64,000 nt of DNA from Promethearchaeota archaeon (GTDB taxonomy: Archaea > Asgardarchaeota > Lokiarchaeia > Sigyniarchaeales > SOKP01), in assembly GCA_019057865.1 (NCBI GenBank), contig JAHLWP010000015.1, positions 1 to 64,000 on the forward strand. The letters run 5' to 3'. The position numbers and the translations under genes were made by a program. Within the stretch, counting starts at the first letter, position 1. Each line of letters starts with the position of its first letter. The notes below the pieces were generated by a model. That model saw only the letters and a program-made list of their open reading frames with translations. It ran no database searches and was not told the origin of the DNA. Below, piece by piece: positions 26,676-34,272 of the stretch.

Positions 26676-27926
26676 TTATGGAAAAATACCTCTTAATTCA
26701 ACAGCTTTTGCTACTCGAGAAAGAGCAATAATATAAGCGGCTGTCCTTAAGATTAAATTCTTCTCTTTTGAGATTTTGTACACGTTTTCAAATGCATCTA
26801 CAATAATTTTTTTTAATTCTTTATTGACACGATCTAAACTCCAAAAGTAACTGTGTATATCTTGAATATATTCAAAATAAGATACGCAAACACCACCCGC
26901 ATTAGCCAAAATATCTGGAATCACAAAGATTCCTTTATTATGTAGAATTTTATCTGCTTCTGGAGTTGTTGGACCATTTGCACCTTCTAAAATAATCTTA
27001 CAATTTATTTTATCAGCATTAATATTAGTTATTTGATTCTCCAAAGCTGCTGGAACCAACACGTCGCATTTTGTAGTAAGTAATTCTTCGTTTGAAATAT
27101 GCTTATAATTATTTTTGTTAAAGTCTCTTAAAAATTTTCCTTGATCTCTCCATTCTAATAATTCTTTAATGTTTAAACCTTTTTCTGAATAAATTCCACC
27201 GAAGATATCTGAAACTGCAAATATTTTACTACCATAGTTATATAATATGTTAGCAATCCATCCTCCAACATTCCCAAATCCTTGAATTATAATGCTCATG
27301 GATTTCAAATCGTAATTTAATTTATTACATAATGCTTCAAGCACATAAAACATGCCCATACCAGTAGCACTATCTCTACCCACAGATCCTCCTATTTCTA
27401 TTGGTTTTCCAGTAACAACTCCAGGTATAGTTCGTCCTTTTTGCATGCTATATACGTCCATGATCCATGCCATGATTTGTGCATTAGTATTAACATCTGG
27501 TGCAGGGATATCGATATCTGGACCAATAAAATTTATAATTTCAGCTGTATATCTTCTCGTAAGTCTTTCTAACTCTTTTTTAGATAATTTTAAAGGATCT
27601 ACGAATATACCTCCTTTTGCTCCTCCAAAAGGTAAATTCAAGAGACTACTTTTCCAAGTCATCCATATTGCTAAAGCCTTTACTTCATCAAGAGTAACAT
27701 TTAGAGAATATCGTATACCTCCTTTCCCAGGTCCTCTAATTGTTGAATGATGAACTCTATATCCTTCAAAAATTTTCAACTTACCATCATCCATCATAAT
27801 CGGAATAGAAACAATTAGGGAGCGTTCTATCCGCTTTAAATATGGAACAATATTTGAGTCCAAATCCATAACTTCTGCTACAATATCTATCTGTTTTTTT
27901 GCCATTTCATAAGGATTTATAGCTAT
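26676..27926 (-). CDS. gdhA: Glutamate dehydrogenase (ATA start at 27926 likely; ATG alternative at 27905)
   Basis: GPGKGGIRY, GGAKGG, DIPAPD, TGKP, GFGNVG, PD.LANAGGV.VSYFE. Confidence 0.95.
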   Translation of the reverse strand: MAINPYEMAKKQIDIVAEVMDLDSNIVPYLKRIERSLIVSIPIMMDDGKLKIFEGYRVHHSTIRGPGKGGIRYSLNVTLDEVKALAIWMTWKSSLLNLPFGGAKGGIFVDPLKLSKKELERLTRRYTAEIINFIGPDIDIPAPDVNTNAQIMAWIMDVYSMQKGRTIPGVVTGKPIEIGGSVGRDSATGMGMFYVLEALCNKLNYDLKSMSIIIQGFGNVGGWIANILYNYGSKIFAVSDIFGGIYSEKGLNIKELLEWRDQGKFLRDFNKNNYKHISNEELLTTKCDVLVPAALENQITNINADKINCKIILEGANGPTTPEADKILHNKGIFVIPDILANAGGVCVSYFEYIQDIHSYFWSLDRVNKELKKIIVDAFENVYKISKEKNLILRTAAYIIALSRVAKAVELRGIFP

Positions 27927-27973
27927 TTTATTTCACCTTAAGATTTTTTCATAATAAATTAAAATTTAAGCAA

Positions 27974-29242
27974 TTAGGGAAATAATCCTCTTAATTCATG
28001 TGCTTTAGCTAATCTTTTTGCGCCAATAGCGAATGCTGCTATCCTAAGTGAAGTATTCATTTTTTTTGATAAATTATATACATCCTCAAAAGTTTTAATA
28101 ATAATATTTTTCATTTCTCTATTAACACGATCTAATCCCCAGAAATAACTGTGTATATCTTGAATATATTCAAAATATGAAACACATACTCCCCCGCTAT
28201 TTGCAAGAATATCTGGAACGATAATTACGCCCTTCTCATTCAAGATGGCGTCCGCTTGGGAAGTTGTTGGACTATTTGCGCCTTCCAATATGATTTTACA
28301 ATCTATATTATCAGCATTTTTACTGTAAATTTGATTCTCAACCGCAGCAGGGATCAAGACATCACATTTTAAACTAAGTAATTCATCATTGGTTATAGTA
28401 CTAATATTTTTTCCATTATAATCTTTAAGTGAATTCCCTTGTTGCTTCCATTTAATTATTTCGTTAATATCTAATCCGTCTGGTGAGTATATCCCTCCTT
28501 GTTTTTCAGAAACTGCAATGACATTACATGAAATTTCACATAACTGTTTAGCAACAACCGATCCCACTTTTCCAAATCCTTGAATCACAATTTTCATTTT
28601 TTTTAAATCAAAATTTAGTTTCTGGCAAATGTGTTTAAGTAGATAACCCATTCCAGTTCCAGGGGCTTCAAGTCTTCCAACAGAACCCCCTATTTCAATT
28701 GGTTTACCAGTTACTACGCTTGGGATAGTTCGACCCTTTTGCATACTATATGTATCCATGATCCAAGCCATTGTGGTTGAATCAGTATACATATCTGGTG
28801 CTGGAATATCTATATCTGGGCCAATCATACTTATGATTTCAGCAGTATATCTTCTAGTCAATCGTTCTAATTCTTTTTTCGATAATTCTTTAGTATCTAC
28901 GCAAACTCCCCCTTTAGATCCTCCTAAAGGTAAATTTAAAAGACTTGTCTTAAATGTCATTAAAAACGCTAAAGCTTTAATTTCGTCAAGAGTAACATCT
29001 GGAGAATATCTTAAACCTCCTTTTGCTGGACCTCGTAAAGTTGAATGATGAACTCTGTAACCTTCAAAAATTTTAAGAAAACCATCATCCATAACTATAG
29101 GGATGGAAACTATTAGTGAACGTTCAACCTTTTTTAGATATTCTAAAGTATTTGGATTTAAATTTATTAGTTCCGCAGCAATATCAAGTTTCTTTTTAGC
29201 ACTTTCAAACGGATTTATTATCAATATTTTCACAATATACAA
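27974..29242 (-). CDS. gdhA: Glutamate dehydrogenase paralogue
   Basis: Same motifs, with variants GRLEAPG, GFGKVG and AVSEK; start may be the TTG at 29224. Confidence 0.93.
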   Translation of the reverse strand: MYIVKILIINPFESAKKKLDIAAELINLNPNTLEYLKKVERSLIVSIPIVMDDGFLKIFEGYRVHHSTLRGPAKGGLRYSPDVTLDEIKALAFLMTFKTSLLNLPLGGSKGGVCVDTKELSKKELERLTRRYTAEIISMIGPDIDIPAPDMYTDSTTMAWIMDTYSMQKGRTIPSVVTGKPIEIGGSVGRLEAPGTGMGYLLKHICQKLNFDLKKMKIVIQGFGKVGSVVAKQLCEISCNVIAVSEKQGGIYSPDGLDINEIIKWKQQGNSLKDYNGKNISTITNDELLSLKCDVLIPAAVENQIYSKNADNIDCKIILEGANSPTTSQADAILNEKGVIIVPDILANSGGVCVSYFEYIQDIHSYFWGLDRVNREMKNIIIKTFEDVYNLSKKMNTSLRIAAFAIGAKRLAKAHELRGLFP

Positions 29243-29380
29243 TTATTTTTATGATAATTAACTTAAATTGTGATCAATATTTAAAATTAAATTTTTTTTA
29301 AAAAAATTAGGATTTATTTGTAGAGAATATGTTTTTGTTTAATAAATTCTTAAAATTTATAAAAAATTTTCATCTAAAAA

Positions 29381-30646
29381 TTATAACCAACCACGTAATT
29401 GCATAGCATCTACAACCCTCCCAACTGCTATTATATAAGCACCCATTCGATTGTGAGTATTATATTCTTTTGCTTTATCAACTGTAGAACGATATGCCTT
29501 AGTCATCACACGATCCAAAGCTGTAAATACTTCCTTTTCATCCCAGAAATATTGATAATATCCTTGGACCATTTCGAAATATGAAACAGTAACTCCTCCC
29601 GCATTACATAAAAAGTCAGGAATCACGAAAATTTCATTCTTAGATAAAATTTGATCTCCTGCAGGTGTAGTTGGTCCATTTGCAAGTTCTGCAACAATCT
29701 TACAATTTAATTTTTCTGCATTCTTTCGTGTTATAACATTTTCAAGTGCAGCAGGAATTAAAATATCACATTCTAATTCTAATAATTCTTCATTGGTTAT
29801 CATTTGAGCATCTTTTAGACCTACCAATGTTGATGTTTTTTCCTTTTGAACCAAAGCCTTGTTAGGATCGATACCATCCTTATTATATATTCCACCCTTG
29901 GAATCAGATATTGCAATAATTTTACAATTAAAATCTTGCGTTAAGATTTTAGAAGCCCAAGATCCGGCATTTCCAAATCCTTGTATAACTACCTTTGCAC
30001 CATTTAGATTTAATTCGATATCTTTTGCAGCTTCTCTAATACAAAACGCGCCACCTTTAGCTGTCGAGATTAGACGTCCAGCACTTCCACCTAAAGGCAA
30101 AGGTTTTCCAGTAATTACAGCAGGTGCATGTTTACGCATAATTGTTTCGTATTCATCCATCATCCACGCCATAATCTGAGGGTTAGTATAAACATCAGGT
30201 GCAGGTACATCAATTGAAGGTCCAATTATATCAGCTAATTTTCTAATATAATTTCTTGCAAGTATTTCAAGTTCTCTATTACTCATCTCTTTAGGAGTAC
30301 AAATAATTCCTCCTTTAGCACCTCCTAATGGAATATCCACACAGGCACATTTCCAAGTCATCCAAGCAGATAGAGCTTTAACAAGAGCAGCACTTTCATC
30401 GGGATGCCATCTAATTCCCCCTTTCATTGGCCCTCTCGCTGAGTTATATTGACTCCTAAAACCCTTAAATGTTTGCAAAGATCCATTGTCCATTCTCATA
30501 GTTATTTTTATTTCGACAAATCTTTCTGGCTGATTCAAAGCCTTATAAATTTCTCTATCACAACTCATTAACTTACAGGCTGTGTAAAGCTGAATTTGAG
30601 AAATCTGAAAAGGATCTAAATTTTCACTATCTTTTAACTTTTCCAT
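29381..30646 (-). CDS. gdhA: Glutamate dehydrogenase
   Basis: GPMKGGIRWHP, GGAKGG, DVPAPD, GFGNAG, AISDSKGG. Confidence 0.95.
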   Translation of the reverse strand: MEKLKDSENLDPFQISQIQLYTACKLMSCDREIYKALNQPERFVEIKITMRMDNGSLQTFKGFRSQYNSARGPMKGGIRWHPDESAALVKALSAWMTWKCACVDIPLGGAKGGIICTPKEMSNRELEILARNYIRKLADIIGPSIDVPAPDVYTNPQIMAWMMDEYETIMRKHAPAVITGKPLPLGGSAGRLISTAKGGAFCIREAAKDIELNLNGAKVVIQGFGNAGSWASKILTQDFNCKIIAISDSKGGIYNKDGIDPNKALVQKEKTSTLVGLKDAQMITNEELLELECDILIPAALENVITRKNAEKLNCKIVAELANGPTTPAGDQILSKNEIFVIPDFLCNAGGVTVSYFEMVQGYYQYFWDEKEVFTALDRVMTKAYRSTVDKAKEYNTHNRMGAYIIAVGRVVDAMQLRGWL

Positions 30647-30653
30647 AATTTAG

Positions 30654-33386
30654 CTATGATTTTTTTTTAGAAATTTTATTAGTTAAATAATTGTCTATTT
30701 CTTTAGCAGCTCTCTTTCCTGCACCCATAGCAGATATAACAGTAGCACTTCCAGTAACTATATCTCCACCAGCAAATACTCCCTCTATATTAGTCTGTCC
30801 ATTTTCATTCGTATTAATATATCCCCATTTGGTCAATTTTAATTCTGGAATTGATTTTGTAAGGATAGGATTTGCTCGTGCACCTATGGCTATGATAATG
30901 GTATCAGTGTCTATTAAATATTCCGAATTTTCAATACGAATTGGTCTTCTACGTCCAGATTCGTCAGGTTCTCCTAATTTCATTTTAATAACCTCCATTT
31001 GCTTGACGTTTTCATTTTCATCCCCTATAAATCTCACTGGGTTTGTTAAGAATTGAAATTTAATGCCTTCTTCTATAGCATGATGATATTCTTCCCTTCT
31101 TGCAGGCATTTCTACCTCCGACCTTCTATATACGACTATAACCTTCTCCGCACCTAACCTTAGTGCTGTTCTGGCTGAATCTAAAACAACGTTACCTCCT
31201 CCAATAACAGTTACGATTTTTCCAATTTTAATGGGTGTATCATAATCAGGAAATCTGTAAGCTTTCATTAAATTTGATCGTGTTAGGAACTCATTAGCAG
31301 TTAGAACTCCATTTAAGTTCAGTCCGGTTACTTTAAGAAATATGGGAAGTCCCGCGCCAACTCCAATGAAAAAGGCTTTGAATCCCATCTTCTTTAACTC
31401 ATCAAGAGTTAGGGTTTTTCCAATAATTGTATTATACTCTATTTTTACATTTAGCATCTTCAATGTCTCAATTTCATCTTTAACAATTTCTTTTGGCAAC
31501 CTAAACTCTGGAATTCCGTATGTAAGGACACCCCCTCCAGCATGGAATGCCTCGAAAATAGTAACATCATAACCCCTCATTGCTAATTCTCCAGCAGCTG
31601 CTAACCCGGCAGGTCCTGAACCTATAACAGCAACTTTAATACCTTTAGGAGCTGCACATTCGGGACATTCTTTTAATTTGTTTTTTCTTTCCCAATCAGC
31701 AATAAATCTTTCTAAATAACCAATTGCAATTGGTTCTCCAAGAGAGTTTAATAAGCATGTTTTTTCACATTGCATTTCTTGTGGACATACTCTTCCACAA
31801 ATGGCAGGTAATAAATTATCTGTTTTGATTTTATAGAGAGCCTCAATAAATTTTTCCTGTTTTAAAAGTTTTATAAATTCAGGGATTCTAATATCTACAG
31901 GACAACCAGTAACACAGAGCGGCAATCCACATTGTAAGCATCTTTGAGTTTCTAGTTTGACTAATTCAGTTGTTAATCCTTTTGGTACTTCTTCAAAATT
32001 AGTTGTTCTTATTTTTGGATCTTGTTCAATCATCTTCACTGGATATTGATCAATATAATTTTTTAACTTAGACTTAGCGATTCTACTTAATTCATTATAA
32101 CTTCTGCTATCTCCTTTTATATCTTCTTTAATAATCTTATTAAGGTCTAATGCTTTTTGAAAAAACTCAGCACCTTGTTTAGTACGTATAATTACTGTTG
32201 ACCAACCAGGTTCAGAACCAATTGATCCTACTGAAATATCTGCATGTTCAGCTGTTAAATCATCACAGAAAAAACAACCAAATCTCCCATATTTCTTAAT
32301 TCTTTTTATTGGAATATCAGAAATTTTACTATCTTGATCATAAATGATAAATCTTCCCTTATCTATATCCATCTTTTTAACATCAGAAGGATAAACTTGA
32401 AACTCATTCTTCAAAAGTTCAATAATTTTATTATAATCAAAGGACTCCATGCAAAAGACTCCAATTTTTAGCACTATATTATCATAAAATGGCTTATTTA
32501 AAGGATAAAAAGAGATTTTTTTAAGAGCTTTCATAATACAAGGTGTGCCAACTACTGCAATTTTATCATGATCCTTGGCATCGTGAAAAATTTTTAATAC
32601 TGGGGTATTTGTATACTTTGTACCTGCAGTCATTAGGAGTTCTTCATCATTTTCAACTAAAATTGGTAATGGTTTTAGAGGTTCATCTCCTACAGTAACA
32701 GCAAAAGAACCATCAATAAACCCTTGTTCAAATGCGGTTTTAAGTAATGTAGTAACTATTCCTCCATCTTGTGCTACTTTCTTTATACGCGGATAGGTTG
32801 TCTGAGCTGTATAAATATCCCGATAATAATTGAACTGTTCTAAGAATTTGATATTAGGAGTGTGATTTTCTTCATGATTTTCTAATACTTTTGGAAAAAA
32901 GGATCTGGGACAACATGAATAACATAATCCACATTCAATACATGACTCATCATCAATCTCAAATGTCCCTTCAGAATAATCAATTGCATTAACAGGGCAG
33001 ATTGTAACACATAAACCACAACCACAACAAAGGTTCGTCTCTTTAATTATGGTGGTATTAGGAAAAACTCCCTTTTTTTCAGACTTTTCAATTATATCTT
33101 GAAAAAATCTAGGTTTCTCCCCTACAAATCCTAGTAATCCTAATTCTTTTAAATATTCGATATTAGCGAATATATTTGTGTCTGATAAGTTTAATTCCTC
33201 TTGTAATCTCTGAATATCAGTAGTACCTAATTCTTCAATTTTTTTTAAAATTCTTTGCCTGTCACTTTCTGCAATAGATAAAGAATTAATCAATTGTTCA
33301 AATTCTAGTTTATTATATTTTCCAATTTTTAGGATTTTATCCTTATTATTTAGTAATGTATCAATTAAGGGGGATTGTACTTCCAT
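30654..33386 (-). CDS. Fusion of wHTH-like + 2x[4Fe-4S] ferredoxin + FrhB (F420-binding) + NfnB/SudA (GltD-like) domains
   Basis: CCGCGLC..CP and CIECGLC..CP; QDGG..T.LL, GTKY, GTPC, IG.FCMESF, C..C.D.TAE.ADISVG; RCLQC...C...CP, CGRVCPQE..CE..C, GSGPAG, GGGNV..D.AR. ATG at 33386 follows GAGGT. Confidence 0.9.
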   Translation of the reverse strand: MEVQSPLIDTLLNNKDKILKIGKYNKLEFEQLINSLSIAESDRQRILKKIEELGTTDIQRLQEELNLSDTNIFANIEYLKELGLLGFVGEKPRFFQDIIEKSEKKGVFPNTTIIKETNLCCGCGLCVTICPVNAIDYSEGTFEIDDESCIECGLCYSCCPRSFFPKVLENHEENHTPNIKFLEQFNYYRDIYTAQTTYPRIKKVAQDGGIVTTLLKTAFEQGFIDGSFAVTVGDEPLKPLPILVENDEELLMTAGTKYTNTPVLKIFHDAKDHDKIAVVGTPCIMKALKKISFYPLNKPFYDNIVLKIGVFCMESFDYNKIIELLKNEFQVYPSDVKKMDIDKGRFIIYDQDSKISDIPIKRIKKYGRFGCFFCDDLTAEHADISVGSIGSEPGWSTVIIRTKQGAEFFQKALDLNKIIKEDIKGDSRSYNELSRIAKSKLKNYIDQYPVKMIEQDPKIRTTNFEEVPKGLTTELVKLETQRCLQCGLPLCVTGCPVDIRIPEFIKLLKQEKFIEALYKIKTDNLLPAICGRVCPQEMQCEKTCLLNSLGEPIAIGYLERFIADWERKNKLKECPECAAPKGIKVAVIGSGPAGLAAAGELAMRGYDVTIFEAFHAGGGVLTYGIPEFRLPKEIVKDEIETLKMLNVKIEYNTIIGKTLTLDELKKMGFKAFFIGVGAGLPIFLKVTGLNLNGVLTANEFLTRSNLMKAYRFPDYDTPIKIGKIVTVIGGGNVVLDSARTALRLGAEKVIVVYRRSEVEMPARREEYHHAIEEGIKFQFLTNPVRFIGDENENVKQMEVIKMKLGEPDESGRRRPIRIENSEYLIDTDTIIIAIGARANPILTKSIPELKLTKWGYINTNENGQTNIEGVFAGGDIVTGSATVISAMGAGKRAAKEIDNYLTNKISKKKS

Positions 33387-33387
33387 C

Positions 33388-34272
33388 CTATGATACCTCA
33401 CGTTCATATTTTTCTAAAGCTCTACATTCCTCCTCATAACATTCTAAAGATTCTTTTTCTTGAGCAAGAAATCTATTAGCGCGTTTTAGTAGATTATCAA
33501 AATTAACAATATGTCCATCAACATCAGGACCATCTACACACGCAAATTGGATATCTCCATCAATAGTGGAAAAACGACAACCTCCACACATTCCAGTTCC
33601 ATCAATCATAATAGTATTCAAAGAAACATAAGTCTTTACTTTAGGTAAATCACCAGATCCATTAGTAGTAAGAGCGACAAATTTCATCATGATTAGAGGT
33701 CCAATCGCAATTACAATACTAATTTTCTCTCTTTTTAGTATATCTTTAAGTGGTTCAGTAACAACTCCCTTCCTTCCTTCAGTCCCATCATCAGTACAAA
33801 TGATTAATTCATCACTTACAGAACGCATTTTTTCTCTCCAAAATAGTAAACTTGTGTTTCTTGCACCCATTATTGTAATTATTTTATTTCCTGCTTCCTT
33901 TAATTCTTTCACTTGAGGATAACATGGAGCAATTCCAACACCACCCCCAATTATTATTACAGGAAATTCATACTTTTGAATGTGAATTCTATTTCCTAAA
34001 GGTCCAACAACATCAAGGATCTTATCACCTACATTTTGATGAGACAATAATTTAGTACTTTTCCCGATAACCTGAAAAACAATAGTTATTATTCCTTTTT
34101 CTCTGTTATAATCTGCGATTGTTAATGGAAATCTTTCACCAGTTTCATTTATTCTTAATAATATGAAATTTCCAGCATATGCTTTTTGAGCGATTAGTGG
34201 AGTGTGAAGAACCATTTCGAATAGTAATCCACTAGTCCCAAATTCCCTTTTCTCTAATATTTCATATGGCAA
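33388..34272 (-). CDS. nfnA: NfnA/SudB (NADH-dependent ferredoxin:NADP+ oxidoreductase small subunit)
   Basis: ERFPLTIAD, GPLG, GGGVGIAP, MIDGTGMCGGCR...CVDGP. Confidence 0.9.
   Translation of the reverse strand: MPYEILEKREFGTSGLLFEMVLHTPLIAQKAYAGNFILLRINETGERFPLTIADYNREKGIITIVFQVIGKSTKLLSHQNVGDKILDVVGPLGNRIHIQKYEFPVIIIGGGVGIAPCYPQVKELKEAGNKIITIMGARNTSLLFWREKMRSVSDELIICTDDGTEGRKGVVTEPLKDILKREKISIVIAIGPLIMMKFVALTTNGSGDLPKVKTYVSLNTIMIDGTGMCGGCRFSTIDGDIQFACVDGPDVDGHIVNFDNLLKRANRFLAQEKESLECYEEECRALEKYEREVS

Follow-up and report, generated by a model that had tools for sequence, protein, structure and literature searches.

A fused FrhB-NfnB gene in Lokiarchaeia, a candidate F420-linked Nfn enzyme

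Among models of flavin-based electron bifurcation the Nfn enzymes are the simplest, and to our knowledge every characterised form has ferredoxin on its low-potential side. Here we describe an nfn locus on contig JAHLWP010000015.1 of a Promethearchaeota archaeon (assembly GCA_019057865.1), within a stretch of 64,000 nucleotides that was analysed as a whole and is called the window below. The gene for the large subunit, NfnB, is joined at this locus in one open reading frame (ORF) to a ferredoxin domain and to a flavoprotein domain of the FrhB type, and this fused module probably lets the hydride carrier F420 replace or supplement ferredoxin. The genome, assembled into 87 contigs with a total of 4.26 Mb, has a completeness of 99.7% and a GC content of about 30%; its relatives carry the labels Promethearchaeota and Lokiarchaeia.

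The nfnA and fusion genes

Two genes form the unit under study, and all coordinates given for the locus are on the minus strand. The upstream gene, nfnA (33388..34272), begins with TTG and encodes the small Nfn subunit, with its flavin adenine dinucleotide (a-FAD), its NAD(H) site and a [2Fe-2S] cluster. It was assigned by homology and by the model NF004862 (356 bits against a cut-off of 220); its product matches the small subunit of Pyrococcus furiosus NfnI (5jca_S, 1.9e-78) and Thermotoga maritima NfnA (4ylf_A, 3.2e-73), and keeps the Asp/Cys3 motif (D..C..C..C) of the [2Fe-2S] cluster as DGTGMCGGCR...FAC. The fusion gene (30654..33386) encodes an N-terminal domain, two [4Fe-4S] clusters, an FrhB domain and NfnB, as recognised by Pfam, NCBIfam and an AlphaFold2 (AF2) model; the AF2 model of the whole chain has a mean pLDDT of 87.9 and a pTM of 0.81. 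Its ORF (30654..33407) specifies 917 residues and is open to 33407. Translation probably starts at the ATG at 33386 (Met8), which would give 910 residues; a GAGGT precedes this codon by 8 nt, the nfnA stop ends 1 bp before it, and the public gene call yields an identical 910-residue product. Residue numbers below follow the 917-residue ORF, with Met8 as the probable first residue. A sequence-only reading of this DNA had reported the ferredoxin, FrhB and NfnB motif sets in a single ORF, 1 bp from nfnA and 7 bp from a glutamate dehydrogenase gene (gdh). The Pfam and NCBIfam domains and the intact ligands bear out the first statement, and the spacing and coordinates held when the gene junctions were re-read.

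The NfnB part occupies residues 458-917 (30654..32036), with two [4Fe-4S] clusters, the b-FAD and the NADP(H) site, and is the sole NfnB over the cut-off in the genome. Pfam recognises Fer4_20 at 467-577 (1.4e-38) and Pyr_redox_2 at 591-897 (1.3e-38), and TIGR01316 scores 583.5 bits against a cut-off of 471.75. Sequence matches include 4ylf_B (2.1e-166) and 5jca_L (8.1e-153), the identity to T. maritima NfnB is 56-60%, and Foldseek superposes the NfnB part on 4YLF_B with a TM-score of 0.93 and a root-mean-square deviation of 2.0 Å. In the numbering of the large subunit of P. furiosus NfnI (PfNfnI-B), Cys42, Cys45, Glu126, Arg201, Arg325, Arg333 and Arg382 are all kept, Glu126 being the odd ligand of the proximal cluster; the sole one changed is Arg253, a variable position. 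The segments GIPEFRLPK and EMPARREE of the fusion align to Arg201 and Arg333, respectively, and the cluster ligands (C490/493/498/502, C537/541/547/551 and E566) are 97-100% conserved. According to Huang et al. 2025, NfnB is told apart from the non-bifurcating Fnor by a longer N-terminal stretch, by Arg333 and by an upstream nfnA (PMC12221290). All three marks are present at the fusion locus; the stretch ahead of the first Cys pair, which aligns from T. maritima residue 7, is an internal linker here.

Some further features touch on NfnB and its kin. A CP[E/D]C pair lies at residues 581-584 (31656-31667), in the segment linking the Fer4_20 domain to the FAD fold. Within the Asgard clade almost every NfnB part has it, secondarily unfused ones included; it is missing from the two fused sequences that branch basally, and none of the bacterial NfnB compared has it. 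A role of this pair linked to the fusion was rejected, as the unfused Asgard forms also have it, and a fusion-specific metal site formed by Cys581, Cys584 and C-terminal Cys residues of NfnA was discarded, only one of the two NfnA Cys being conserved. Elsewhere in the same genome, a multi-domain ORF (G000:C45:34534-37068; L096:976-3510) has a GltD/NfnB-like module behind Fer2_4, NADH-G_4Fe-4S_3 and ferredoxin domains and resembles the large subunit of NfnABC or Stn, and in another large ORF (G000:C3 from 93963; L095:1042-4233) an extra FAD fold precedes such a module.

The front half of the fusion begins its redox part with the ferredoxin domain (residues 118-172, 32892..33056), whose two [4Fe-4S] clusters have C127, C130, C133, C137 and C156, C159, C162, C166 as ligands. 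It is followed by the FrhB-type flavoprotein domain (residues 191-450, 32058..32837), with FAD, one [4Fe-4S] cluster and a presumed F420 site. Pfam recognises a 4Fe-4S dicluster domain at 118-170, FrhB_FdhB_N at 198-273 (3.6e-20) and FrhB_FdhB_C at 281-430 (2.2e-43). The best solved match of residues 110-450 is the F420-reductase subunit of the carbon monoxide dehydrogenase (CODH) of Ca. Ethanoperedens (8RIU_B, 1.1e-55); the F420-reductase subunit of Fwd from the same organism (8RJA_E, 2.3e-51), FrhB (6QGR chain B, 2.4e-50; 6QGR and 3ZFS, about 1e-50) and the N-terminal half of Fsr (about 1e-42; 7npa_A, 3.4e-42) also match. These solved relatives share one layout, in which a two-[4Fe-4S] ferredoxin domain precedes an FrhB fold that holds FAD and a single [4Fe-4S], and a reaction with F420 has been demonstrated for each of them (PMC11493965; PMC10229431). 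The eight Cys of the ferredoxin domain and the P289-C290...C319...C378xxC381 motif of the FrhB [4Fe-4S] cluster show no variation among 37 fused and 7 stand-alone homologues; a non-canonical PC...C...CxxC motif of this kind, next to FAD, was described for Fsr (PMC10229431). Over the whole fusion, all 20 Fe-S ligands are invariant or nearly so among the 37 fused homologues. Twelve genes of the genome encode an FrhB_C domain (e.g. G000:C37:11819-12274, C23:4412-4864, C1:1972-2427 and C72:4883-5326), and the products of at least four are stand-alone proteins of about 485-510 residues, composed, like the front half of the fusion, of this N-terminal helical domain, a ferredoxin domain and FrhB.

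The N-terminal domain proper (residues 8-110, 33078..33386) is modelled by AF2 with a pLDDT of 88 as an all-helical fold with no beta wing, and is common to the stand-alone Asgard FrhB paralogues of about 506 residues. It had been labelled as resembling a winged helix-turn-helix (HTH). The Pfam HTH matches stay under the threshold (E 0.003-0.15), those of Foldseek have E > 1 with 41-57 residues aligned at 1-2.5 Å, and those of VIA have Z 5.3-5.8; Zalpha, Lrp and ROK HTH folds are among these weak matches, and the domain is HTH-like at best.

Downstream of the fusion lie three tandem gdh paralogues of the archaeal type (26676-30646), each scoring under the curated GdhA_Arch cut-off. The first, gdh-1 (29381..30646), starts 7 bp past the fusion stop; gdh-2 (27974..29242) follows 138 bp beyond it, and gdh-3 (26676..27905) a further 68 bp on. 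A triple gdh array like this one is also found in two related loci (L055 and L061). The window holds glnA as well, and an Rfam search of the window gave no match.

Reality, distribution and descent of the fusion

The fusion is genuine and not an assembly artefact, because Logan contigs from three independent marine-sediment studies read through the FrhB/NfnB junction (about 32030-32090), and likewise through that of nfnA and the fusion, with no insertion or deletion. The full-length protein was found in about 50 Asgard metagenome-assembled genomes (MAGs) at 57-85% identity, in a scan of one genome per species. When 400 genomes of the phylum were searched, the full-length fusion was present in about 55 of the 134 genomes of the window's own family, in at least seven genera, whereas the 266 genomes from 32 other families gave no full-length fusion and only matches of NfnB length, at 58-64% identity. 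A read error and absence from relatives, either of which would have undone the sequence-only reading, are both at odds with these findings. Over the front half, a search of 1.84 billion cluster representatives gave only three matches, one to a full-length representative and two to fragments; the fusion therefore forms one tight family. It is represented by about 98 clusters at 90% identity, which bear the name 'NADPH-dependent glutamate synthase' or 'F420 hydrogenase beta subunit C-terminal domain'.

Wherever a related fused locus includes upstream sequence, nfnA lies directly upstream of the fusion. The window's closest relatives have a unit of nfnA and the fusion alone, with genes of the opposite strand on its flanks, and gdh linkage occurs in about 15 of 44 related fused loci; outside the gdh-linked loci the core unit is nfnA plus the fusion. 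Copy number and integrity vary between genomes. In one related MAG (L022:5989-11508) a single nfnA is followed by a tandem pair of full-length fusion genes, and several genomes of the window's family have two divergent fused copies at separate loci. In MAG DZ2M.159 a TAA codon (L049:7177-7179) breaks the gene at the position of Glu387 of the window protein, so that this copy is either a pseudogene or the product of a sequencing error; selenocysteine was ruled out, the codon being TAA and not TGA. In many related loci a protein of about 919 residues, which combines a 4Fe-4S dicluster domain with a GltD/NfnB-like module and ends in a CCG (HdrB-like) domain, is encoded about 1 kb upstream of nfnA, at L015:2207-4963 and in the same position at L020, L022, L025, L026 and L050; the window's locus is without it.

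The front half of the fusion, residues 10-110 included, is 39% identical to stand-alone proteins of about 506 residues from the same archaea, and the gene therefore arose by the joining of such a protein to NfnB. In a quick maximum-likelihood tree, all Asgard NfnB parts of this type form one clade (SH-aLRT 91) that adjoins bacterial NfnB. Four unfused sequences are nested within the fused clade at two places, with 99% support each, and the module was therefore lost at least twice; judged from this tree, the fused state is the ancestral one in the Asgard NfnB clade. One unfused form lies at a locus (L061:3179-11646) with the window's gene order, that is, a divergent guaA, nfnA, nfnB and three gdh. 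Its NfnB is 73% identical, adjoins a fused homologue in the tree, and offers a natural control in which the module has been deleted.

A predicted electron path and the alternatives

With moderate confidence, the gene pair is read as encoding a bifurcating enzyme of the Nfn type in which an F420 reductase terminates the low-potential Fe-S branch, so that NADPH, NADH and F420 would be coupled. The large subunit would have gained at its N-terminus a complete F420 reductase module of the kind found in FpoF and in the N-terminal half of Fsr. NADPH would hand a hydride to the b-FAD of the NfnB part, the site of bifurcation. From there one electron would pass by the [2Fe-2S] cluster and the a-FAD of NfnA to NAD+, along an unchanged high-potential branch, and the other would travel from the proximal to the distal [4Fe-4S] cluster of NfnB, through the cluster pair of the ferredoxin domain and then the FrhB [4Fe-4S] cluster, to the FrhB FAD, which would gather two electrons and reduce F420. 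The net reaction, presumably reversible, would be 2 NADPH + NAD+ + F420 <-> 2 NADP+ + NADH + F420H2. By analogy with Fsr and with the Ethanoperedens enzymes, a single Fe-S wire would be the simplest reading; in Fsr the electrons cross between the protomers of a head-to-tail dimer (PMC10229431), and a relay across protomers could apply to the fusion too.

The position of the module is in keeping with such a path. In PfNfnI, the N-terminus of NfnB packs on the helices that hold both clusters, beside the exposed distal cluster, which is the presumed docking site of ferredoxin (PMC12221290). It is at this terminus that the FrhB module is attached, and a contact with the distal cluster may be expected. 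The genome also has the means to supply F420: cofG (372 bits), cofH (456), cofD (310) and cofE (257) were found over cut-off, as an earlier suggestion to look for cof genes had asked, and so was Mtd (352 bits). The host is therefore predicted both to make F420 (cofG/H/D/E) and to use it (mtd). McrB was not found in the genome; FrhA and Fno were not found over cut-off, the latter giving a weak Fno-like match only.

As for physiology, NAD(P)H from the presumably co-transcribed glutamate dehydrogenases (GDHs) could yield F420H2 for Mtd in the tetrahydromethanopterin (H4MPT) Wood-Ljungdahl pathway of a peptide-fermenting archaeon. Published reconstructions of Asgard metabolism leave F420 reduction to hypothetical FrhB-containing modules (PMC10667645), and an NAD(P)H-linked reduction by the fusion enzyme, fed by GDH, would fit this gap. 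A link to glutamate oxidation had also been put forward in the sequence-only reading. From the tight gdh synteny in the window we infer such a tie there, but the linkage recurs in only the minority of fused loci noted above. The full proposal, tentative as a whole, is that of a bifurcating enzyme of three hydride carriers (NADPH, NADH and F420) which operates without ferredoxin and keeps F420 strongly reduced for the H4MPT Wood-Ljungdahl pathway, in a family of amino-acid-fermenting Lokiarchaeia without F420-reducing hydrogenase. Of the bifurcating transhydrogenase with an F420-wired branch that was first suggested from the letters of the DNA, the architecture, the NfnB marks, the upstream nfnA, the F420-type front half and the cof and mtd genes stand, while the electrical wiring, the role of F420 as substrate and its replacement of ferredoxin as opposed to an addition to it, together with stoichiometry and direction, keep the rank of predictions.

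Several points weigh against an F420-wired bifurcating enzyme, and they bear on the alternatives as follows. The secondary losses, and the ordinary NfnAB appearance of what is left, show that the NfnB part can work without the module, and that this part may still use free ferredoxin. It is possible, although rather unlikely, that the locus encodes an ordinary ferredoxin-dependent NfnAB with a side branch between ferredoxin and F420, which would equilibrate four substrates (ferredoxin, F420, NADH and NADPH) on one Fe-S chain. In favour of such an arrangement, the NfnB part is canonical at every residue tested, an ordinary unfused NfnB survives after two independent losses of the module, and soluble proteins of the FqoF/FpoF type have been proposed as ferredoxin:F420 oxidoreductases (PMC10667645). 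On the other hand, with an N-terminal module next to the distal cluster, the docking site of ferredoxin would probably be taken up or narrowed. The sequence itself does not tell this arrangement from the three-carrier enzyme.

Energetics raise a second difficulty. The potential of NAD(P)H lies near that of F420. The latter is about -340 mV (PMC10667645), so F420 is nearly isopotential with NAD(P)H and a bifurcating flavin would not be needed for the reduction of F420 by NADPH. A low-potential branch that leads to F420 is therefore energetically odd, and little energy would be conserved by bifurcation. These considerations favour a non-bifurcating NADPH:F420 oxidoreductase, in which an NfnB input of the GltD/Fnor type passes both electrons to F420 and NfnA is an accessory or an alternative entry for NADH. 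GltD-type modules in glutamate synthase and in dihydropyrimidine dehydrogenase do feed Fe-S chains without bifurcation, and the genome has no Fno over cut-off. This explanation is nevertheless improbable, since the fusion has the marks of a bifurcating NfnB and not of Fnor: Arg333, a long N-terminal stretch and an upstream nfnA that is strictly conserved.

A third difficulty concerns the specificity of the FrhB-type domain, which scores under the curated cut-offs for its family: 225 against 331.5 for TIGR03289, 160 against 475 for NF040616, 168 against 444 for NF006808, and 254 against 269 for the subfamily model NF006807. As the FrhB and FpoF equivalog cut-offs are missed, the domain belongs to a separate subfamily and is no orthologue of FrhB or FpoF. 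The FrhB family also has members that do not use F420, FrhB_C proteins being found in control organisms without F420, and the residues that contact F420 are undefined in the solved relatives (PMC10229431). The domain might be independent of F420 and serve another acceptor, as a flavin module or in electron transfer, or be a structural adaptor, and the twelve FrhB-family paralogues in the genome suggest diversified roles. We consider this quite improbable: the best solved relatives all react with F420, the FAD and cluster motifs are intact, and F420 biosynthesis and mtd are present in the genome. That the fusion is an NADPH-dependent glutamate synthase of the small-subunit type, acting with the neighbouring nitrogen genes, is extremely improbable, for although TIGR01316, which bears this name, is exceeded, public records use the name, and gdh and glnA lie within the window, no large subunit of the GltB type was found in the 99.7% complete genome (PF01645 gives just two partial matches of 23-25 bits genome-wide, none near the locus), nfnA stands upstream, the NfnB-specific residues are kept and the closest structures are those of NfnB.

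Known relatives and significance

The F420-wired enzyme proposed here can be set against several known systems. It resembles characterised NfnAB in its two-gene nfnA-nfnB unit, in its cofactor set, the Glu ligand included, in its 54-60% identity and TM-score of 0.93, and in Arg201 and Arg333. Unlike these enzymes, the large subunit has about 450 extra N-terminal residues, which add the helical domain, two [4Fe-4S] clusters and an FrhB domain with a predicted fifth [4Fe-4S] cluster and third flavin; its third substrate would probably be F420, instead of or besides free ferredoxin. Group I Fsr of Methanococcales (7NP8/7NPA) likewise has an N-terminal ferredoxin and FrhB-type module with PC..C..CxxC fused to a catalytic C-terminal half, and its F420H2-oxidase module is wired to that half by an Fe-S relay. 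In Fsr, though, the C-terminal half is a siroheme sulfite reductase, without bifurcating flavin or NAD(P) sites.

Ferredoxin plus FrhB modules are also found in the CODH zeta subunit (8RIU_B) and in FwdI (8RJA_E) of Ca. Ethanoperedens thermophilum, where they take over an outlet that elsewhere uses ferredoxin and deliver electrons to F420, as shown by assay (PMC11493965). Unlike the fusion, these modules are separate subunits on CO2-forming enzymes and have no N-terminal helical domain. FpoF/FqoF and FrhB agree with residues 118-450 in domain content and cofactor motifs, but neither Fpo/Fqo membrane subunits nor FrhA/G accompany the fusion. NfnABC (9N5U, 9BOV) and StnABC (8OH5) offer a parallel of another kind, as an NfnB/GltD-like bifurcating module is fused or joined in them to extra Fe-S and flavin modules; those extras are HydB/NuoF-like or formate-dehydrogenase-like rather than FrhB, and F420 is not involved.

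The sequence-only reading knew of no characterised enzyme with this architecture, and none was found in the searchable literature: a search on FrhB with NfnB, and on Nfn in Asgard archaea, returned no description of the fusion, subscription journals being mostly outside its reach, and the four patterns in a 2019 review of Nfn architectures include none with FrhB. The fusion is NfnAB plus a module of the Fsr/FpoF type, each of a known kind, and it stands in databases under misleading names only. The widespread name 'NADPH-dependent glutamate synthase' is corrected by the present assignment. The fusion is confined to one uncultured family, which limits its reach, and its function is described here by prediction throughout. 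If it is hard-wired to F420, the enzyme would couple the three main hydride carriers of anaerobic archaea in a new way and would put to the test how large a driving force is required by a bifurcating flavin. For the organisms themselves, an F420-wired Nfn would explain how F420 is reduced for the Wood-Ljungdahl pathway in Lokiarchaeia that have neither Frh nor Fno.

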